A stretch of DNA of 63,521 nt, the filler included, from Licmophora abbreviata (lineage: Eukaryota), in assembly GCA_900291995.1 (NCBI GenBank). It is 14 parts of 14 records of this genome, joined end to end, with 100 filler letters (N's around TTAATTAATTAA, not from the genome) between each part and the next. Parts side by side here need not be neighbours in the genome. Positions count along the whole stretch, not along the records: positions 58,118 to 62,158 come from OLMU01004279.1; 13 more parts are not named here. One strand, 5' to 3'. Positions 5,058 through 62,158 of this stretch are shown here, piece by piece. The stretch's first letter is position 1. Every line of letters starts with the position of its first letter. The notes beneath the pieces were generated by a model, which was not told the origin of the DNA, searched no databases, and saw only the letters and a program-made list of their open reading frames with translations. Both the position numbers and the translations under genes were made by a program.

Positions 5058-6534
5058 ATGCCTCCGGATGCCGACAAACTTCGCCAGCGTAAGGTTCATG
5101 CCGAGCAAGACAAGCAGGATGAAGCCGCTACTACGCAGCGCATTTGTTCTTTGAAGAATCTCAAGGGCACCGAAGTCTGTATCGATGGAGGAATTTACGA
5201 CATTGCGGACTTTGATCATCCCGGAGGAGACACGATTCTAATCTTTGGAGGAAACGACGTGACGGTTCAGTACCGCATGATTCATCCTTACCATACCTCC
5301 AAGCATCTCGAAAAGATGAAGCGTGTCGGCACTGTCGCGGACGCTACGTGCGAGTACGTTGCTCCTGTAGTTTCTTTTGTGTTGAGCTTGTCCGGTTTCC
5401 ATGGCTGTAGTCTGACCTGATCTTCTCTTGTGGTCTTTTAACAGATACAAGTTTGATACCCCATTCGAACAAGAAATCAAGCGAGAAGTCTTCAAGATTG
5501 TCCGACGTGGACGCGAGTTCGGCACATTCGGCTACTTTCTCCGCGCCTTCTTTTACATCGGACTCTTCTTCACCTTGCAGTTCCTGTGGGTGACGATGGG
5601 ATCGTCCCTTCTTCTCGCAGTCGTCTATGGTATTTCTCAAGCCTTTATTGGTCTCAATGTGCAGCACGATGCCAACCACGGAGCGGCCTCCAGGAAGCCT
5701 TGGGTCAACGACCTGCTGGGACTTGGCGCTGATTTCATCGGAGGCTCCAAGTGGCTCTGGTTGGAACAGCACTGGACGCACCATACGTACACAAACCATT
5801 GCGAGAAGGATCCTGACAGCGTTGGAGCCGAGCCGATGCTGTTGTTCAACGACTACCCTCTTGGTCATCCCGCTCGTACGTGGATGCACAACTTTCAAGT
5901 TTTTTTCTATGCCCCTGTTTTGGCGGGGTACTGGATTTCGTCTGTGTTTAACCCTCAAGTGCTAGATTTGCAGCAGCGTGGGGCACAGAGCGTGGGCATT
6001 CGTCTTGACAATGATTTCATCGTCAGCCGTCGCAAGTATGCCATCATGTTGCGTATCCTGTACATCTTGACCAATATCGTTTCACCATTCATTCACCACG
6101 GCTTGACTTGGGAGCCGTTGATGCACATCATGATCATGGGCGTGGCCGAAAGTCTAACTTTGGCCATTCCGTTCAGTCTGTCGCACAACTTTGAAGACTG
6201 CGATCGCGATCCGACTGTGGATGTTCGCAAGACGGGAGAACCCGTGTGCTGGTTCAAGAGTCAAGTTGAAACGTCGTGCACGTATGGAGGATTCATCTCG
6301 GGTTGCTTGACCGGTGGACTGAACTTTCAGGTGGAACATCACCTGTTCCCTCGCATGTCGAGCGCTTGGTATCCGTACATTGCTCCGACCGTGCGTGAGG
6401 TGTGCAAGAAACATGGTGTCAAGTATGCCTACTATCCGTGGATCCTACAGAACCTGGTTTCAACCCTCAAGTACATGCATGCCACTGGCACGGGTGCTCA
6501 CTGGATCAAAGACCCCCTGTCTGGAAAGAACTGA
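5058..6534 (+). CDS. Front-end delta-5 fatty acid desaturase (cytochrome b5 fusion); exons 5058-5353, 5445-6534
   Basis: HPGG haem motif, His boxes HDANH, QHWTHH and QVEHHLFP. N-terminus MPPDADKLRQR resembles the Phaeodactylum delta-5 desaturase. Confidence 0.92.
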
Positions 6535-12628: not shown

Positions 12629-12728
12629 NNNNNNNNNNNNNNNNNNNNNNNNNNNNNNNNNNNNNNNNNNNNTTAATTAATTAANNNNNNNNNNNNNNNN
12701 NNNNNNNNNNNNNNNNNNNNNNNNNNNN
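12629..12728. other. Artificial contig linker N44-TTAATTAATTAA-N44. Same linker at 17825, 24898, 27609, 29919, 31583, 39517, 43706, 48182, 50076, 53951, 58018 and 62159 (100 nt each)
   Basis: Identical 100-nt spacer with stop codons in all six frames, present 13 times. Confidence 0.99.
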
Positions 12729-17824: not shown

Positions 17825-18143
17825 NNNNNNNNNNNNNNNNNNNNNNNNNNNNNNNNNNNNNNNNNNNNTTAATTAATTAANNNNNNNNNNNNNNNNNNNN
17901 NNNNNNNNNNNNNNNNNNNNNNNNGTAGCGAAGTTTGCGACGCGAGAGGAATTGAGGGCTTTAGTAGAGCTCGCGACCTCGTGGCGATACTGGAAACCCG
18001 GAAAATGACGTGTTTTTCGCGCTCGCTTTTTCCTTCTCTTTTTTCCTCTTTCGGGTTTCGAATTTGCTTCGACGGCTGACGATGACGGCGGCGACGACAT
18101 CGGTCACTTCCTTCCTCACCGCATGCCACGAGCAAGCTGCACC

Positions 18144-24897: not shown

Positions 24898-25363
24898 NNN
24901 NNNNNNNNNNNNNNNNNNNNNNNNNNNNNNNNNNNNNNNNNTTAATTAATTAANNNNNNNNNNNNNNNNNNNNNNNNNNNNNNNNNNNNNNNNNNNNGTA
25001 TCGTAATAGACTGAAATCGTATTGCTCATCCTCGTGACGTAATGGTCAAAATACTAATTTGAATCAAAAGCATGAAGGTGAGTTACTGAACTGATTATGA
25101 TATATATTGATGCCATTTTATTCATACAAAGATGAACCTATGCAAACCAATTTTTTTATTCGTCAATATTAACGAAAGTCCGAAAAATTTAATTCTTGAA
25201 TCAAATGAGTCCAAAAAAATTAGTTCAAGAATCAATCAAATGACATGCCTGCCGCCGGAAGGTGAGTGATGGGTGGCTACTACTAGCAGAGATTATCGAT
25301 TATATATTATATGGTATGTGGGCAGGAGGGCGGACCATTTCGAAACGTGACCACAGTTGCAGA

Positions 25364-32435: not shown

Positions 32436-33888
32436 CTAGACTTTGATAGCAAACTCCGTCGTCAATGTTCGGCCATGGAAAACCCTTTCCATCATATGCC
32501 AGCTTCTATGCCGCGTCATGGCTACTCTTCGTCCTTCGCTTGAAATAGAGTCTCTCTTCTTCTTACTGACATGCCACAAGTAATGCTTGATCTTGTCAAC
32601 CAGATCCTTCACACCATCGTAAATCACAACATTCTTGCCATCCTCCAGTCCTTCTGGTATCATCAACATTCGATCCATGAATACCAAGGCCCCGCTACAT
32701 AGCGCCTCCATTAACCGATAATGGTCTTCCCAGTGATCCTTTTGAGCCACAACGACGATTTTGTATTGTAATAGTGCTCGTGCATATTCGTACTGGACCT
32801 GCAACCGACCTTCATTGGCCGCTGTTCCCGTTAATCCAGCGACGGCCGTGATGTTCTGGTACGTTTGACTCAACGTCAGCAAGGATTCACTAACGGCGTC
32901 ACGCAACTGCGAATTGTTATCTCCTAGTACGCCCTTGCGGCTTACTGCGACGGTGCTATTGTGCTTCGACGGCGCTGGCCAGAAGTGCACCACATCCTTG
33001 GGCCGAGGCAAGGACGACCACACGTCCGATTCTGATTCTGATGCCCTCGCTGGGTACGTCTCCCGCAAGATGTTGTCGATTGCATGCACGAGATCGCTTC
33101 GAACCCCATAATTGACATGTCGCACTGGCGTACTAGACCAGTACGAGTAGTTTCTCGTCCACGCTGGATTGATTTGTCCAAGTTCGATCGATTGACTGGC
33201 AGTGTTCCAATGTCGACCACTCACAAAAGATCTCTTCAGATAATGAACGTTATGTCGTCCCAGCATGTCGTAGAGAGAATCACAATGTTGATATTTCCAC
33301 GGAAGATCTGGATCATCGCTCCAGTCCATGATATAGATTGGCCAAGTAGTACTCCTCCCTTGCGAACTACTGGCTTGCGCGTCTTGCACCGCTCGTTCCA
33401 GCGCGCCGCACCACTTCGATGGTCGTTTGCCCTGATTGGTGTCGACAATCCAAATGAGATCTGGATGCGTATACGACGGGTCGTAGATGCGTCGCAGATA
33501 TTGGGATCGATCTATACCTTCCAACGTAAAGTGTTTGAACTCTTGCCACCAGGTACTGTATCCAAGACTATTGTCGTCAAAGTTGGATTGATTAACATTA
33601 GGCCAAACGAAGAACAGGTACAACAGCAGGTGCGATGACTTAGTCATTTGGAAACTTTGTTGCTGTCGTCGTCGTTTCTCTTCTCCGAGCCGTCGTCAGA
33701 GGCATCCAAGATGAGTGCGCCAACGAGCTATCTCCTATTTCACCGACGATTACTATTCTGTGAACAGTCACGACCGATCGGAGCGAGACAGCCCCGATGA
33801 ATACCAACGCCAACACCACGCAGAGTGTTCGCACCGTGAACGACTTCCGTGTTATCTTCCGTCCCATTTCGATACTTTTACCAGTCAT
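32436..33888 (-). CDS. Glycosyltransferase (Glyco_trans_1_2-like C-terminus), paralog A; 5' TM region out of frame with the catalytic ORF
   Basis: YKIVVVAQKD.WE.HYRLMEAL.SGALV motif. The TM-containing ORF 33640-33888 and the main ORF 32436-33647 are in different frames. Confidence 0.75.
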
Positions 33889-34175
33889 CGCCGTGGGCGT
33901 TCTCTCTCCTCATGCTGGTGGTGGTTTCGTCCTTGTCATCCTACTGGCGGTCATTTTATTTTGTGAGAGGATGTGCGGGATGAAAACATCTGAAGGAAAA
34001 GTCTTTGGGCCTTTTTCATAAGTAAAATAGACGCATGGCACTAGAAAGCTCGCAGCAAGTCTGCAGGCCGATTTTAGATTTATCCGAGAGCAAGAACGGG
34101 TTCACTCACGAGTCGACTTGACGATGACCATGACGGCAAGAGACTCTCTCTCGACTGCCACAGACAGCTAGTATC

Positions 34176-35681
34176 ATGAGCCCACCTCCCCGAATAAGGC
34201 GGAAGAGAGTCTTTTGGATCTTAACGACGTCTCTCTGCGTCTTGTCGGGAAGCGGCATCTTGCTATGGAGCACGACGGTCGTCGTGACGGAATCAGGATG
34301 GATCCCGAAAAGTACCACTAGTACAGAGACAGAGCAAAACAAAGTTGAGCAGTCTTCCATACAGGAATCGAAGTTTCCCTCTACTTCTCCTCGTGTTACA
34401 GTTTCTCCCTCTTTTGCACCGCCTAAGTTTGTTCCGACTGCCGCTACAACTAGTCTTTTGCCGACATTGGCTTCATCTTCGGCCACCCAAACTCCCATTC
34501 CAGTCTACCTTTGGCCCAACGTGAACCAATCCAACTTCGACGACAACACGCTCGGGTACTCTACATACTCCTTTGAATACAAACACTTTGTCATTGAAGG
34601 GATCGACCGCAGCCAGAATCTGGAGCGAATTTACGATGCCTCGTACTCGCACCCCAAACTCATTTGGATGACGGACTTGTTCCAAGGCAAACGACCGTCC
34701 AAATGGTGTGCAGCACTCACGAGTGCTGTCAAGGACGCGCAAAAGAGCAGCACCACAAGCACCACACCATGGCCTCTGTACATTTTGGATTGGAATGACG
34801 ATCCAAAGTTGCCTTGGACCTATCAACACTGCGATGAGCTATACGAACTGCTGGGACGACACAATGTGTACTATTGGAAGCGCAGTATGGTGAGAGGTCG
34901 AAGCTGGAATGAGAGTACGAGGAGCATCAATCCAGGAACCATTGACTCCACCTTTTCATGGAACTACTCGGACTGGTCGGCGGCGCCCATTCAGCACCTG
35001 TCCTATGGTGTTCGAACCGATATACTTTGTGCGATGCAGGAGATCATTCAGAGAGATTACGCGGATCTACTATCATCTCACGATTCTTCTGGTTCCATCA
35101 AAGACTGGGATTTATCTTCCTTGTTGCCCCGTCCATTCGATGTGGCCCACTTTTGGCCTGCCCCTGAACAGCAAACGTCCGCAACACAAGTCAACCGGGG
35201 AGGGTCCAGCAGCAACAATTCACAGCTGCGAGACGAAGTGAGTCGCGCCATATATGGTTGGAATCAGACACACTCGAATGCCACCGGCTTTGCGGGCTTG
35301 ACGGGAAGTGCAAAGGAGCAGGGGCGTGTGGAGGCACAAGAAGATTATGCGCGTGCACTATTGGAATACAAGATAGTGGTAGTAGCGCAGAAGGACGAGT
35401 GGGAAGGGCACTATCGCTTGATGGAAGCGTTGAGTAGTGGAGCATTAGTCATGACGGATCGTATGTTGGTACCTCCGGAAGGCTTCCAAGATGGAACGAG
35501 TATTGTAATTTATGACAATGCGACGGACTTGTTGAACAAAATCGAACATTACTTGTGGAGCGTCAGTACTGAAAGGCGAGAGGCCATTGCACGTGAAGGA
35601 AGGAGAATCGCCATGACACGGCATCGAAGCTGGCATATTATGGAACGAATCATCCATGGAAAGGCACTCTCTGCAGCGTGA
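34176..35681 (+). CDS. Glycosyltransferase (Glyco_trans_1_2-like), paralog B, intact type II membrane protein
   Basis: N-terminal TM helix, S/T/P-rich stem, RLMEALSSGALVMTD and EAIAREGRRIAMTRH. Confidence 0.82.
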   Translation: MSPPPRIRRKRVFWILTTSLCVLSGSGILLWSTTVVVTESGWIPKSTTSTETEQNKVEQSSIQESKFPSTSPRVTVSPSFAPPKFVPTAATTSLLPTLASSSATQTPIPVYLWPNVNQSNFDDNTLGYSTYSFEYKHFVIEGIDRSQNLERIYDASYSHPKLIWMTDLFQGKRPSKWCAALTSAVKDAQKSSTTSTTPWPLYILDWNDDPKLPWTYQHCDELYELLGRHNVYYWKRSMVRGRSWNESTRSINPGTIDSTFSWNYSDWSAAPIQHLSYGVRTDILCAMQEIIQRDYADLLSSHDSSGSIKDWDLSSLLPRPFDVAHFWPAPEQQTSATQVNRGGSSSNNSQLRDEVSRAIYGWNQTHSNATGFAGLTGSAKEQGRVEAQEDYARALLEYKIVVVAQKDEWEGHYRLMEALSSGALVMTDRMLVPPEGFQDGTSIVIYDNATDLLNKIEHYLWSVSTERREAIAREGRRIAMTRHRSWHIMERIIHGKALSAA

Positions 35682-58017: not shown

Positions 58018-58117
58018 NNNNNNNNNNNNNNNNNNNNNNNNNNNNNNNNNNNNNNNNNNNNTTAATTAATTAANNNNNNNNNNNNNNNNNNNNNNNNNNN
58101 NNNNNNNNNNNNNNNNN

Positions 58118-59208
58118 CGGCGGGTCGAACTATGGAGGGAGTACTTGCATGGACGTGAAAATGAATGACGATCGGAACTCCTACCCTACATCAAGTTTAA
58201 TACCACCAGTACGCCTCAAGTGCGTCTTCGTCTTTGGGCCTATACAGACCGTCGGGCGGATACAAGTTTGCATGAAGTTTCCTCGGACTGGGAGGAAACG
58301 ACATTCACGTGGGATAACAAGCCAGCCGTGGGTGCGCTCTTTGAGACAAAGCCCTATCCTCCGCAGTACGAGTCTGTTGCGTTTGATGTCACAGACTATA
58401 TCAACACACAGGTCGGTGGTGTCGTGTACGTTTCCTTTGCCATGCATTCTGCCACCGACAATTCTCTCGTCAAGTTCTACTCGCGCGAGTGGCCCACGCC
58501 CGACGTGTGGCCCATGTTGGAGTTTGGCGAAGCGCCTCCCCCTCTCGTTCCGCCCTTTTCGTTGCCGAACTTTCAATCGGCCCTGTCTGGGTGTCGATTG
58601 CAGTGGCCGGACTCGTCACCGCAGAAAGTGAGCAATTGAGCATTCGAGGGATACGCAGTCGATGCATTCCAGCTGGTCGAAGATTCGTACATGCAGTTCA
58701 CCATGTCGGGAGAGGGCAATCGTTGCGAGCTTCGACACAACATGGAATGGCCCGCCATGGCAGTGTGGAACGGCGACTGACGGCGCGTGTTGCGATTCCT
58801 TCTCCAGCCGCATCTTCGGGTCAGTTCACCTTTCTTCAGGTGCACAACAAGGACTTTCTAACGTACGACGCGGGGCCGCTGTTGCGGATCAACTGGCGTC
58901 GAGACACGCGGGGATATACCGATCATATCTGGGCATCCTTGCGAGTGTCACTGGATCCCAAGGATGTAGACTTGTTCCCGCTCTTTCCTCGTCCCGCTGG
59001 ATTCTTTGATATGGAACTGAAGCTCGTCAACAGCAAGCTCACCATTTTGATTGACGGTGTCGCTCCTCCGCTTTCACCGGAAGTCGTCGATTACGACCTA
59101 AGCTACTGGGACCCCATGGTGACCAACCATTTCAAGGCTGGAGTCTATCTGAATGACGGAGGTGAGGCTGCGGTCACTTTGTTTGAAGAGCTAGAGATTG
59201 TTGTTTAG
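58118..59208 (+). pseudogene. DNRLRE/CBM96-like module plus PL7 alginate lyase, disrupted by a 5-nt duplication, an in-frame TGA and a 1-nt frameshift
   Basis: CBM motifs NYGG, YIKF, WEETTFTWDNKP, FDVT and FYSRE. PL7 motifs RLQWP, RCELR, FLQVH, PLLRI and HFKAGVY. Lesions at 58180-58189, 58637-58639 and about 58756. Confidence 0.78.
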
Positions 59209-59630
59209 AGCAGACAAGTAGACTACGAGTAAGCAGTCTATGAGCTACTACTTGGTCGTACCGGAGATGCTGCTTTTCCGGCATCGCAGTCTCATCCCTT
59301 CCTACAGTAACAGTCTATAAACCGATGCGGGGATGAAACTGTGTTGCGGTCTGGTGCACACAGTAGATTGCTGTGTCAAAGTTGACGTCCAACCAACTCG
59401 TCGCCGTCTTCCAATGGCATTTTTTATTTTTTACTAGTAAACGTTTATGAGCCACTGATTCGTTCATTAGCATAGAGATATTTAGTACACCATCGCATCT
59501 TGTTTCAAATTCCTAATTCCTGTATGAAGACAGAGCGCACGCGCGCCAAGACAGATGCCGATCAAAATTGAGAGGATTGGAAGGAGGGAACATCTTCTCT
59601 TTCGTCGAAACTGTACACAGCCTTTCAGGC

Positions 59631-62158
59631 ATGGGAAAGCAAGGAGTCACACGACGAGAAACGACGAGACGACTTCTTCTTACGTCACGACCCTGGTCGG
59701 TCTGCTCGTCCCTTATTCTTGCTTGTTCCGCGATGATGAGTAGGACCTGCAACATTCTCGCGCTTATTCCGTTTACAGACAAACGAGACGGGCCACCGGA
59801 CTTTTTGCAATGTCCCAACAGACTGAACGACGGCTCCAGGGAGTCTTCTTCTTCTTCTTCTTCTTCCGATGATCGTCGACGACGAACCGAGGAGGAAGCT
59901 GTATGCGAGGGGGTCGACGAGGACCTGCACTATGGATCTGGTGAGTGGCCTTCTGCCGAAGCTCTGGGGCGTGCTGCCTACTCCCACTTGGCCGTTGCGC
60001 AGCTGGCTGTAGAACACTTCAATTCGAGAAATTCCTCCGTCGTGTCGCAGCTTGCAGATCCAATCTACTTTCAATGCAATGTGACATTGACGATTCAAGT
60101 TCGAGACAGTGAATACAGTAAATCAACTTCCTTTGGACATGCTCTAGAGGCGACACGTGCCTTGACTGTCAGTGGTGGTGCTGAGGAGGGTGCGGACGAG
60201 GATGCTCAAACTCTCTGTGCCGTGGTAGGCCCTGCCAATGCCAGAGTAGCCGAGGGAGTCAATGCGCTCTTGGGATACCTAAGGATACCGCAGTTGATCT
60301 ACTCTTCCATTGATGACAATTTGAATCGACGCTTCGAGTTTCCGTCCGTGGTACGCCCCATTGCCAACGTGAGGGCTTTTGCAGACGCCATTATGCTCTA
60401 TTTCCAGCGCCCTGGTCGGGAACGCCTCTTTGTTTCGGGTTTTTATGACTCGACGGATTACGCAAATCAGTTCAAAAGTATTATTGGAGACGGCGATGAA
60501 GAGACGGACCTCGAAATTGACGGGGAGAGTTCGGTAGAGTTTGACTTTGCAAGCATCAAGGATGTGGTGAAAAGTGGAGTGCGGGAAGGGTATAGGACTA
60601 TCTTTCTCGCTACCGACCGATTAGCTTACGTCCGAGCCATTGCCGACTTGGCTGATGAAGAAGGTCTCATTGGAGATGGCTGGTTCTGGACCATTACGGG
60701 TGCGGCGTTGTCCCCCCGCGACACTTGCGGTTCTGGAGGAGCCAGAGGATTCGCCACTCGATCGTCTCCTTCGAGGCGCGGCCATCTTTACCAACTATGA
60801 TCCATTCCTGTTGTACAATGACGACGACGAGGAGGCGCCCGAGGAAAGCAGATTTCTCAAGGTATGGAGGGATCAGGATGGAGCCTTTGCGGAGCGGGTG
60901 AATGCACTACATCCCCTGAGAAATCAGACGGATCTGCCCCAGTACAAGATTCAGACCGATGCGTCGTACTTTCAACACAATGATCCCGCAGAGTATGCAT
61001 CGTACTTGTACGACTCGTTCATGCTCACTGGAATGAGTCTGTGTCGACTGCAAAAGTCAAAGAGCGATGAGGATGACGAGGATGCGAGGGGCATAGACGG
61101 CGAACATCGTGTCCGCCGACACATGGAAACCGGGAGGGATTCTATGGATGATGAGAGTGATATTGGCGGTCAGCATGTGGACGAACTCTTGCGAATGGAA
61201 ATCGACGGTGCATCGGGGCGTCTTATGTTTGAGGAAGATGGAAACAGTCGAGACGACGACGGTGCCTTCTTTGGGGTTTACAACATTCGGCCTGGGGAGG
61301 TCGACAACATGACGAGACTACGTGGTTACAGCTCCGTTCTAACAGCAGTGTATGAAGATGGCTGGTGGCGTGATGTCGAGGAATTTGTCTTCTTCAGCGG
61401 CTCGTCGGAGCAGCCCACACCCCTCCGGACTATCGGGGATGCGAACTATTTGACCAACGGGATCCAAGCGTTCGGTCTCGCATTGATGTCCATTGCAATT
61501 CTCATCGCACTTGGGACTGGCGCATGGGTGTGGTGGATGAGAGAGAAGCGGCTTGTCAAGGCGGGCCAACCAGAGTTTCTTTGCCTTTTGTGTTTTGGCG
61601 CAGCAATCCTGGCGTCGTCCATTCTATGCGTATCGTTTGATGATAGCGACTGGTCGACTAGTGCGCTTGATGCGGCCTGTACGGCGCTTCCTTGGCTCTT
61701 TGTGAACGGCTACCTCATCATATACTGCGCGTGTTTTAGCAAGGTTAGTAATGACTTGCGCTAACGCTGGGACCGTTGCCATTGTCTTCGCTGGGTATCT
61801 CACTCTTCTCGCGTTCTCGCTCCCTTTTTCGGAATGGCACAGCTGTGGAGAATCAACAAGGTCATGTCTAGTCAGCGACGCCAAGTCAAGATCCATCACG
61901 CTCTTTGGTCATTCTTGATTATGATAACGGCTAGCCTGATTGTTTTGATTACGTGGACGGCAATCGATCCCTTGCAATGGGAACGCATAGAGATCGACGA
62001 TCGTCCCGCGTTGATCACGTACGGGGAATGCAAAAGTGGTGACAAAGGCTTACTTCCGTTCCTCTTGCCGATTGGGTTACTCCTCGCCACCATCACTGTT
62101 ATGGTCATGGTCGGCGCATGGCGCGCGAAGCACCTCCAGGCCGACCTGGCGGAGTCCA
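59631..62158 (+). CDS. Class C (GABA-B-like) GPCR: ANF/Venus-flytrap domain plus 7TM; frameshift near 60716, intron 61744-61842, 3' truncated
   Basis: AVEHFN, AVVGP, IPQL and YLYD in the ectodomain. LVKAGQPEFL, FSKLWRIN and WTAIDPLQW in the 7TM region. Confidence 0.88.

Follow-up and report, generated by a model that had tools for sequence, protein, structure and literature searches.

The window examined here is a stretch of 63,521 bases from the assembly deposited for Licmophora abbreviata (GCA_900291995.1). It consists of 14 contigs (1.3-12.6 kb each) with 13 identical artificial spacers between them. Each spacer has the layout N44-TTAATTAATTAA-N44, and neighbourhood across any spacer is meaningless. 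The contig of interest covers 58118-62158 (4,041 bp); the bases up to 58017 belong to a different contig. It carries a gene for an alginate lyase of the PL7 family and, downstream, a class C G protein-coupled receptor (GPCR) gene. In the lyase gene (58119-59208, plus strand), a carbohydrate-binding module (CBM) of the CBM96 type is followed by a PL7 lyase domain, and the two are spread over three frames. The reading frame opens at the first bases of the contig. Because the contig edge at 58118 cuts the 5' end, the start codon, any signal peptide, and the first part of the CBM are out of view. The corresponding contig of a public run (X1, described below) extends 62 nt upstream of 58118, and the edge is therefore technical. 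The features at this end of the contig are as follows.

58018..58117 (no strand): artificial spacer, N44-TTAATTAATTAA-N44, the boundary left of the lyase contig
58119..58181 (+): N-terminal fragment of CBM96, GGSNYGGSTCMDVKMNDDRNS, frame 0; truncated by the contig edge, alignable to the N-terminal part of P0163, the closest relative
58187..58636 (+): rest of CBM96, Pro-rich linker, and first PL7 strand, frame 2; matches PF24517, with 67% identity to P0163
58640..58756 (+): PL7 segment with RCELR, frame 2
58759..59208 (+): last 149 residues of PL7, including QVH and FKAGVY, frame 1; TAG stop at 59206-59208

Two Pfam profiles match this gene above their cutoffs. CBM96 (PF24517) is found at 58169-58636 in frame 2 (E 7.8e-16, 58.8 bits, cutoff 26). 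It spans positions 43-154 of the 164 in the profile; the module begins in the other frame, where the contig edge cuts it. Alginate_lyase2 (PF08787) is found at 58759-59205 in frame 1 (E 1.3e-11, 45.2 bits, cutoff 29.7). The available part of PMC9345997 gives the conserved regions of PL7 lyases as RxEL(V)R, QI(V)H, and YFKxGxYxQ, and all three exist here (RCELR, QVH, and HFKAGVYLN). In the third region the first Tyr is changed to His and the final Gln is gone, as in the closest relatives P0001 and P0005. A first-pass annotation of this DNA had recognized a DNRLRE-like module followed by the three PL7 regions, and both the profiles and the motifs bear it out.

When the protein is read through with X at the breaks, it aligns end to end with its relatives, and tblastn with P0163 against the window gives an E of 1e-84. 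The bacterial protein P0006 is colinear with the window over 58187-58753 and 58756-59205. The visible part of the lyase therefore has no intron, as had been noted before. No Pfam match to CBM32 is found in the lyase at E<=1, its N-terminal module being CBM96. No other lyase copy is found in the 63-kb window by tblastn with P0163, P0001, and P0006. The CBM96-PL7 combination is otherwise named only in bacteria, and the gene was rightly described as bacterial-type.

The first-pass annotation had also listed three lesions in this gene. Eight public runs contain part of the stretch, none of them half of its words, and four were compared. What they provide is assembled contigs at a depth of 2-3.5, not raw reads. 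None of the eight is listed as RNA, apart from a tentative "RNA?" label on X6. X1 is a marine metagenome, X2 is a metagenome of another study, and X6 ("organism A") is the named organism of another study. The sites at which these data bear on the reading frame are listed below.

58180..58189 (+): CCTAC CCTAC tandem duplication, a frameshift of +5 nt; kept in X1, while X2 is without exactly 5 nt
58622..58624 (+): CAG (Gln) codon; TAG in X2 (58622 C>T)
58637..58639 (+): in-frame TGA where the relatives have an invariant Gly; T in X6, G (GGA) in X2
58756..58758 (+): site of a 1-nt deletion, A for AA; X1 and X6 have an extra A behind 58756; probably a homopolymer error

All three lesions are where they had been placed, but probably only two of them stand as signs of inactivation. 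The TGA at 58637 appears to be a genuine base change, found in two technically independent data sets. X6 covers 58592-58868 of the lyase and keeps the T at 58637, although it departs from the window at 58743, where it encodes Thr as P0163 does. The 5-nt duplication is probably real because it is not a homopolymer change and is common to X1, which differs from the window elsewhere. X1 has zero substitutions relative to the window over 58118-58550 and 58722-58919, and four letters are different in 59381-59531. It also has a defect of its own, being one T short in the TTT at 58340 (TT), which shifts the frame. The missing A at 58756, in contrast, is probably a sequencing error. The lyase frame changes at 58756/58757, and the extra A carried by both X1 and X6 restores it, which makes decay the less likely reading of the deletion. 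This deletion, an extra C in the GPCR gene (see below), and the missing T of X1 are taken as probable errors because each is confined to a single data set, homopolymeric, and the lone blemish in an open frame.

X2, from another ocean sample, is a near-identical copy without the duplication and with GGA (Gly) at 58637, yet it has its own stop, TAG at 58622, five codons upstream. Over 58582-58732, the sole two substitutions between the window and X2 (58622 and 58637) both make or unmake stop codons. As 27 of the 450 possible single changes in this interval create a stop, the coincidence has a p of ~0.004, which is post hoc and at depth 2. The double difference fits independent null alleles. X2 also has 12 extra in-frame bases behind 58201, and P0163 is likewise four residues longer there. 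The window and X1 are without these 12 bases at 58201-58202, just past the conserved FD/FN motif of the CBM, and near 58201 the Asp of X2 and the relatives is replaced by Asn in the window.

The lyase is probably broken, by at least one well-supported lesion and likely by two. The earlier suggestion of a dead or pseudogenised copy is kept as far as the TGA in X6, the duplication in X1, and the other stop in X2 are concerned, and is given up for the deletion. Two ways of sparing the protein from the TGA were tried and rejected. A tiny intron excising it (GTGAGC at 58628) does not agree with the relatives, which are colinear across the site and have Gly at the stop; nor could it remove the TAG of X2, because 58622 is upstream of its GT. 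Reassignment of TGA was rejected as well, since no in-frame TGA exists in the desaturase exon open reading frame (ORF, 5416-6531) or in the GPCR reading frames.

How far the decay has gone was judged from the columns showing no variation across at least six catalytically intact relatives (n=24). The window deviates at one of them, which is the stop itself (the column has Gly in 9/9 filled rows of relatives), and the other 23 are unchanged. In a leave-one-out control, intact relatives deviate at 2-7 invariant columns. The set of catalytic residues is complete. Since no invariant column other than the stop is altered, any inactivation would be recent. The description of the gene as "decaying" was therefore overstated.

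Our preferred explanation, to which we assign a probability of roughly 0.6, is that this is a real CBM96-PL7 gene in the nuclear genome of a marine diatom, recently inactivated in the strain of the window. The lyase contig is eukaryotic because the second gene on it is a class C GPCR. The DNA of the window as a whole is from a diatom that the protein collection does not include, judging from the relatives of a desaturase gene on the first contig (given below), almost all of which are diatom sequences among those named. The intact gene would encode a two-module protein, in which a short Pro-rich linker connects a polyuronide-binding CBM96 to a PL7 lyase with a beta-jelly-roll fold. The lyase would act by beta-elimination on alginate rich in mannuronate or on a similar polyuronide. 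In this reaction His of QVH would be the base and Tyr of FKAGVY the acid, and the Arg of RCELR and the Gln of QVH would hold the carboxylate. Inactivation would have come about by a GGA-to-TGA change at the invariant Gly at the start of the lyase domain and by the 5-nt tandem duplication in the CBM, the missing A at 58756 being most likely a homopolymer sequencing error. We infer the timing of the loss. Null alleles seem to be segregating, because the near-identical copy in X2, which is without both lesions, carries a different stop.

The function that the intact protein would have had is indicated by solved structures. The best sequence match to the last 149 residues is the red algal lyase PyAly (7w13, E 1.4e-10), followed by the PL7C and PL7A entries of the fungus Paradendryphiella salina (E 6.6e-8 to 1.3e-6) and by AlyC3. 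Eleven solved sequences match at E<=0.01, ten alginate-lyase chains and a mutant of one of them. According to the accessible part of PMC9345997, 7w13 is PyAly H125A and 7w18 is PyAly H125A/Y223A, both with mannuronate oligomers. The His and the Tyr of the window align exactly opposite H125 and Y223, the mutated catalytic positions. The domain of the window itself is split over two frames. A relative, P0003 (same CBM96-PL7 layout, 48% identity), was therefore modelled in its place, with a mean predicted local distance difference test score (pLDDT) of 87.4, and the model of this relative matches PL7 structures with template modelling (TM) scores of 0.84-0.90. The N-terminal half of the model is matched by the chondroitin-sulfate-binding module 8wab (TM 0.83) and by 7vbo, the alginate-binding founder of CBM96 (TM 0.74). 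It is reported in PMC11890756, as far as its text is available, that QVH is tied to a preference for polymannuronate and QIH to one for polyguluronate. Because of the closest solved matches, the aligned His and Tyr, the fold of the P0003 model, and the link of QVH with polymannuronate, the intact protein would most likely cleave endolytically by beta-elimination, prefer mannuronate, and carry a polyuronide-binding module. Its natural substrate may be alginate.

The likenesses to known lyases have their limits. PyAly (Pyropia yezoensis, 7W13, 7W18) shares the QVH, FKAGVY, and RxELR regions, is eukaryotic, and has been crystallized with mannuronate oligomers. It is an intact and active single-domain enzyme, however, with a chain of 241 residues without CBM96, and it has 30% identity to the P0003 model. 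The P. salina enzymes PL7A and PL7C (6YWF, 7NCZ, 8BJR, and others) are also eukaryotic and solved with mannuronate oligomers. Although fungal, intact, and made up of one domain, they are the top fold matches to the P0003 model (TM 0.84-0.87). TM6-N4 of Defluviitalea phaphyphila Dp0100 (7VBO) belongs to the same Pfam family as the CBM here and matches the P0003 model with a TM score of 0.74, whereas its sequence match is weak (E 0.2) and the chondroitin-sulfate-binding 8wab fits the structure better. Its alginate-binding residues are given as Lys10, 22, 25, 27, 31, Arg36, and Tyr159 in the accessible portion of PMC9971899.

Relatives of the lyase were collected by a full HMMER pass over 1.84 billion representatives, which found 169 proteins at E<=0.001 and four at E<=1e-30. 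The closest of them are metagenome or run-assembly proteins. P0163 is a fragment of 310 residues with CBM96 and PL7; its identity to the lyase is 67% in tblastn and 72% over PL7 alone. P0001 has 371 residues (59-61% identity), contains PL7 only, and has a signal-anchor-like N-terminus; in the Atlas it is listed under "PL7, bacterial clusters". Names that type the source exist for 5/30 relatives looked up, and a few others are just "hypothetical protein". The five are Cerasicoccus frondis, an Opitutaceae metagenome-assembled genome (MAG), a Planctomycetota MAG, an "uncultured bacterium", and a transcript of the euglenid Jenningsia. Some relatives have Big_7 "bacterial Ig" domains. The nearest named non-eukaryote is Cerasicoccus frondis (WP_309384198.1, Verrucomicrobiota), whose protein shares the CBM96-PL7 architecture and has no intron-like gap. 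Unlike the gene of the window, it is bacterial and intact, and the two share 47% identity over PL7 and ~35% over the CBM (47/135 columns). The subfamily is rare in the phylum of Cerasicoccus, where 2/301 sampled genomes match at E<=1e-5. A scan of genome contigs with P0006 found Cerasicoccus itself, one weak Anaerolineales match, and nothing else, and no DNA locus of a close relative was confirmed in two metagenome scans.

In the careful tree of 32 PL7 domains, in which no Nitzschia sing1 or named Vibrio sequence was included, the window pairs with P0163 (support 94/84), and P0001 joins them next (87/78). The window is located within a clade of 20 rows (100/98), whose sole other typed member is the euglenid transcript. 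Cerasicoccus is sister to this clade (99/96), and the other named bacteria are found across the root. A quick tree of 63 rows agrees with it. Origin by transfer from a Verrucomicrobiota-like bacterium is plausible because of the shared architecture, the missing intron, and the bacterial sister; a wider eukaryotic PL7 lineage is a live alternative. Of the horizontal acquisition proposed in the first-pass annotation, the bacterial-type architecture is borne out. The transfer itself stays conjectural, with the two typed members of the clade being eukaryotic. The tie to an epiphytic or biofilm lifestyle suggested there is likewise conjectural.

Two groups among the relatives have forms of their own. 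In a sister subclade (P0003, P0004, P0009, P0013, and P0017, ~415 residues), the catalytic Glu, His, Lys, and Tyr are lost. The motifs have become RCALR, then QIQ, QID, or QMD, then FMAGVF or FQAGIF, and these proteins may be binding-only pseudo-lyases. The catalytically intact P0005/P0160 and P0001 have a hydrophobic signal-anchor and a Ser/Thr-rich stalk in place of CBM96; they look like type II membrane proteins of the eukaryotic secretory pathway.

Several observations weigh against an imported alginate lyase gene recently lost in a diatom. CBM96/DNRLRE modules are also found on hyaluronate and pectate lyases (PMC9971899, in the part available), and one CBM96-type module binds chondroitin sulfate; alginate as the substrate is therefore unproven. 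The lack of a source-typing name for 25/30 of the relatives looked up, and of any typed bacterium in the clade of the lyase, bears on its origin. That the typed clade members are this diatom and a euglenid transcriptome, and that the nearest solved structures are eukaryotic, weakens the case for horizontal acquisition. With the conserved residues undecayed, a working gene may exist in most cells. All support for the lesions comes from assembled contigs of depth 2-3.5, of which X1 may be the source sample of the window. An assembly prone to indel errors could, in principle, have produced the other lesions as well. No independent contig joins the lyase and the GPCR, 59198-59332 being uncovered in the four runs, which says nothing either way.

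Among the other explanations, the one that survives best is that the gene belongs to an older PL7 lineage scattered over eukaryotes, with acidic extracellular polymers of the cell itself as the substrate, and is now being lost here, rather than being a recent import for brown-algal alginate. We consider it unlikely, though worth serious attention. It would account for the 20-row clade, which holds the diatom gene and the euglenid transcript and no typed bacterium. It would also account for the eukaryotic nature of the best solved matches in both sequence and fold (red-algal PyAly, fungal PL7A and PL7C of Paradendryphiella), and for relatives that are membrane-anchored or, in the sister subclade, without catalytic residues. 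Yet a bacterial source is possible for the 18/20 clade members without a type, some of which have Big_7 domains, and the euglenid transcript could stem from prey or bacteria. Moreover, no PL7 is reported from five photosynthetic and two colourless diatom genomes (PMC11960938, in the text available).

An intact, working lyase gene, with a thinly covered and error-prone assembly as the source of all three lesions, is improbable. The assembly probably does make such errors. Its 1-nt deletion is contradicted by two runs, its homopolymer frameshift in the GPCR is missing in X6, X1 has TT for TTT at 58340, and no conserved residue is changed save the stop. The TGA, however, is a substitution rather than an indel, and X6, which is from another study and departs from the window at 58743, has it too. 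The 5-nt duplication is no homopolymer error and is found again in X1, whose sequence departs from the window at other places. A misjoin of bacterial lyase DNA to a diatom GPCR (a chimera), or a misbinned contig, is very improbable: 59198-59332 between the genes is without an independent contig, the lyase has no intron, and its nearest named non-eukaryotic relative is a bacterium of the same architecture, but its composition matches the other window genes (a weak test, see below), P0163 (67-72%) and P0001 (59%) are far closer than Cerasicoccus (47%), the N-termini of P0001 and P0005/P0160 are of a eukaryotic style (signal-anchor, Ser/Thr-rich), and two frame-breaking lesions are unexpected in a functional bacterial gene.

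If the gene is, as we prefer, a recently inactivated diatom CBM96-PL7 gene, the closest precedent is the colourless diatom Nitzschia sing1 (PLoS Biol 2025, PMC11960938), the only source of published diatom PL7 lyases in the literature searched. As described in the accessible part of that paper, Nitzschia sing1 has 91 PL7 genes, mostly CBM32-PL7, which group with Vibrio and are active or neofunctionalised. PL7 is given there as absent from five photosynthetic and two colourless diatoms, and the acquisition is read as unique to the Nitzschia sing1 lineage. Both cases concern a bacterial-type PL7 in a diatom nuclear genome, interpreted in that paper as transfer. They differ in the binding module and the nearest bacterium (CBM32 and Vibrio there, CBM96 and a verrucomicrobial nearest named bacterium here) and in copy number (91 there, one broken copy in the 63-kb window here). 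Because of the different module and nearest bacterium, the lyase is placed outside the Nitzschia sing1 family, a comparison made by description, as the sequences were not compared directly. No paper on a CBM96-PL7 gene in a diatom was found in the literature searched, which did not cover subscription journals.

On its sequence, therefore, the gene appears to be a second, separate case of a bacterial-type alginate-lyase gene in diatoms. A CBM96-PL7 gene of another lineage in another diatom would imply that diatoms met the PL7 family more than once. It would also offer a natural contrast, in which one lineage expanded PL7 into a new feeding mode and another discards it. If the untyped relatives are eukaryotic, the gene bears on the role of PL7 in protists, that is, on eating alginate versus remodelling their own acidic polymers. 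Taken further, these observations allow a tentative reading that we regard as possible and hold with little confidence. It is of a second, undescribed PL7 lineage in diatoms and perhaps other protists, related to the mannuronate lyases of red algae and fungi, sister to verrucomicrobial CBM96-PL7, and independent of Nitzschia sing1. Such a lineage would comprise active, membrane-anchored, and dead forms and would now be in the course of loss in this oceanic diatom, with at least two independent nonsense alleles (58637 TGA and 58622 TAG) and a frameshift allele segregating in the wild.

The GPCR gene downstream of the lyase has the following features.

59631..62158 (+): class C GPCR (ANF_receptor and 7tm_3), running off the contig end
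60712-60717 (+): C6 homopolymer with a frameshift; C5 in X6, and homologues switch frame there without a gap
61744-61842 (+): GPCR intron of 99 nt, starting with GTTAGT, with CTAAC inside, ending with CAG, and containing an in-frame TAA

Its in-frame ATG at 59631 is 422 nt past the lyase stop; another in-frame ATG follows at 59733. The stretch 61744-61842 is a spliceosomal intron, because homologues skip it and it has GT..CTAAC..AG signals. An intron-bearing class C GPCR about 420 bp from the lyase on the same contig is thus present, as first described. The frameshift in the C6 run is probably an assembly error. Among proteins of more than 611 residues, which were those searched, five relatives are found. 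Two of them are named, one from the diatom Cylindrotheca fusiformis (39%) and one from a diatom MMETSP record whose name starts with "Tric" (35%). Near the N-terminus of the GPCR, a (TCT)n microsatellite at 59837-59878 encodes poly-Ser. The X1 contig over 59644-60176 has three gaps relative to the window, and the (TCT)n stretch is skipped as a repeat.

The composition of the lyase is within the range of 11 other ORFs of the window in GC content (0.54), GC content at third codon positions (GC3, 0.62), and codon use. Note that this test is weak, since the Cerasicoccus gene also scores within the diatom range. Elsewhere in the window, the contig boundaries and the gene used for placing the host are the following.

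12629-12728, 17825-17924, 24898-24997, and ten further sites (no strand): artificial spacers, contig boundaries
5058-5357 and 5443-6531: two exons of a cytochrome-b5-fused front-end desaturase, separated by an 85-nt intron (5358-5442)

The desaturase ORF at 5416-6531 (contig 1) has 2,699 relatives, the best with 85% identity. Among the 120 listed, the named matches are Mayamaea, Fistulifera, Pseudo-nitzschia, Cylindrotheca, Nitzschia Nitz4, and a Bacillariaceae MAG. Further matches among these 120 have names shortened to Rhizoso-, Odontel-, and Staur-, and one is labelled Alexandrium tamarense. This gene, the sole other one checked against homologues for such defects, is clean and has no frameshift. 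Two divergent ORFs are also found in the window, at 32439-33695 (-) and 34134-35678 (+), each with a Glyco_trans_1_2 domain (E 1e-10 and 8.5e-14).

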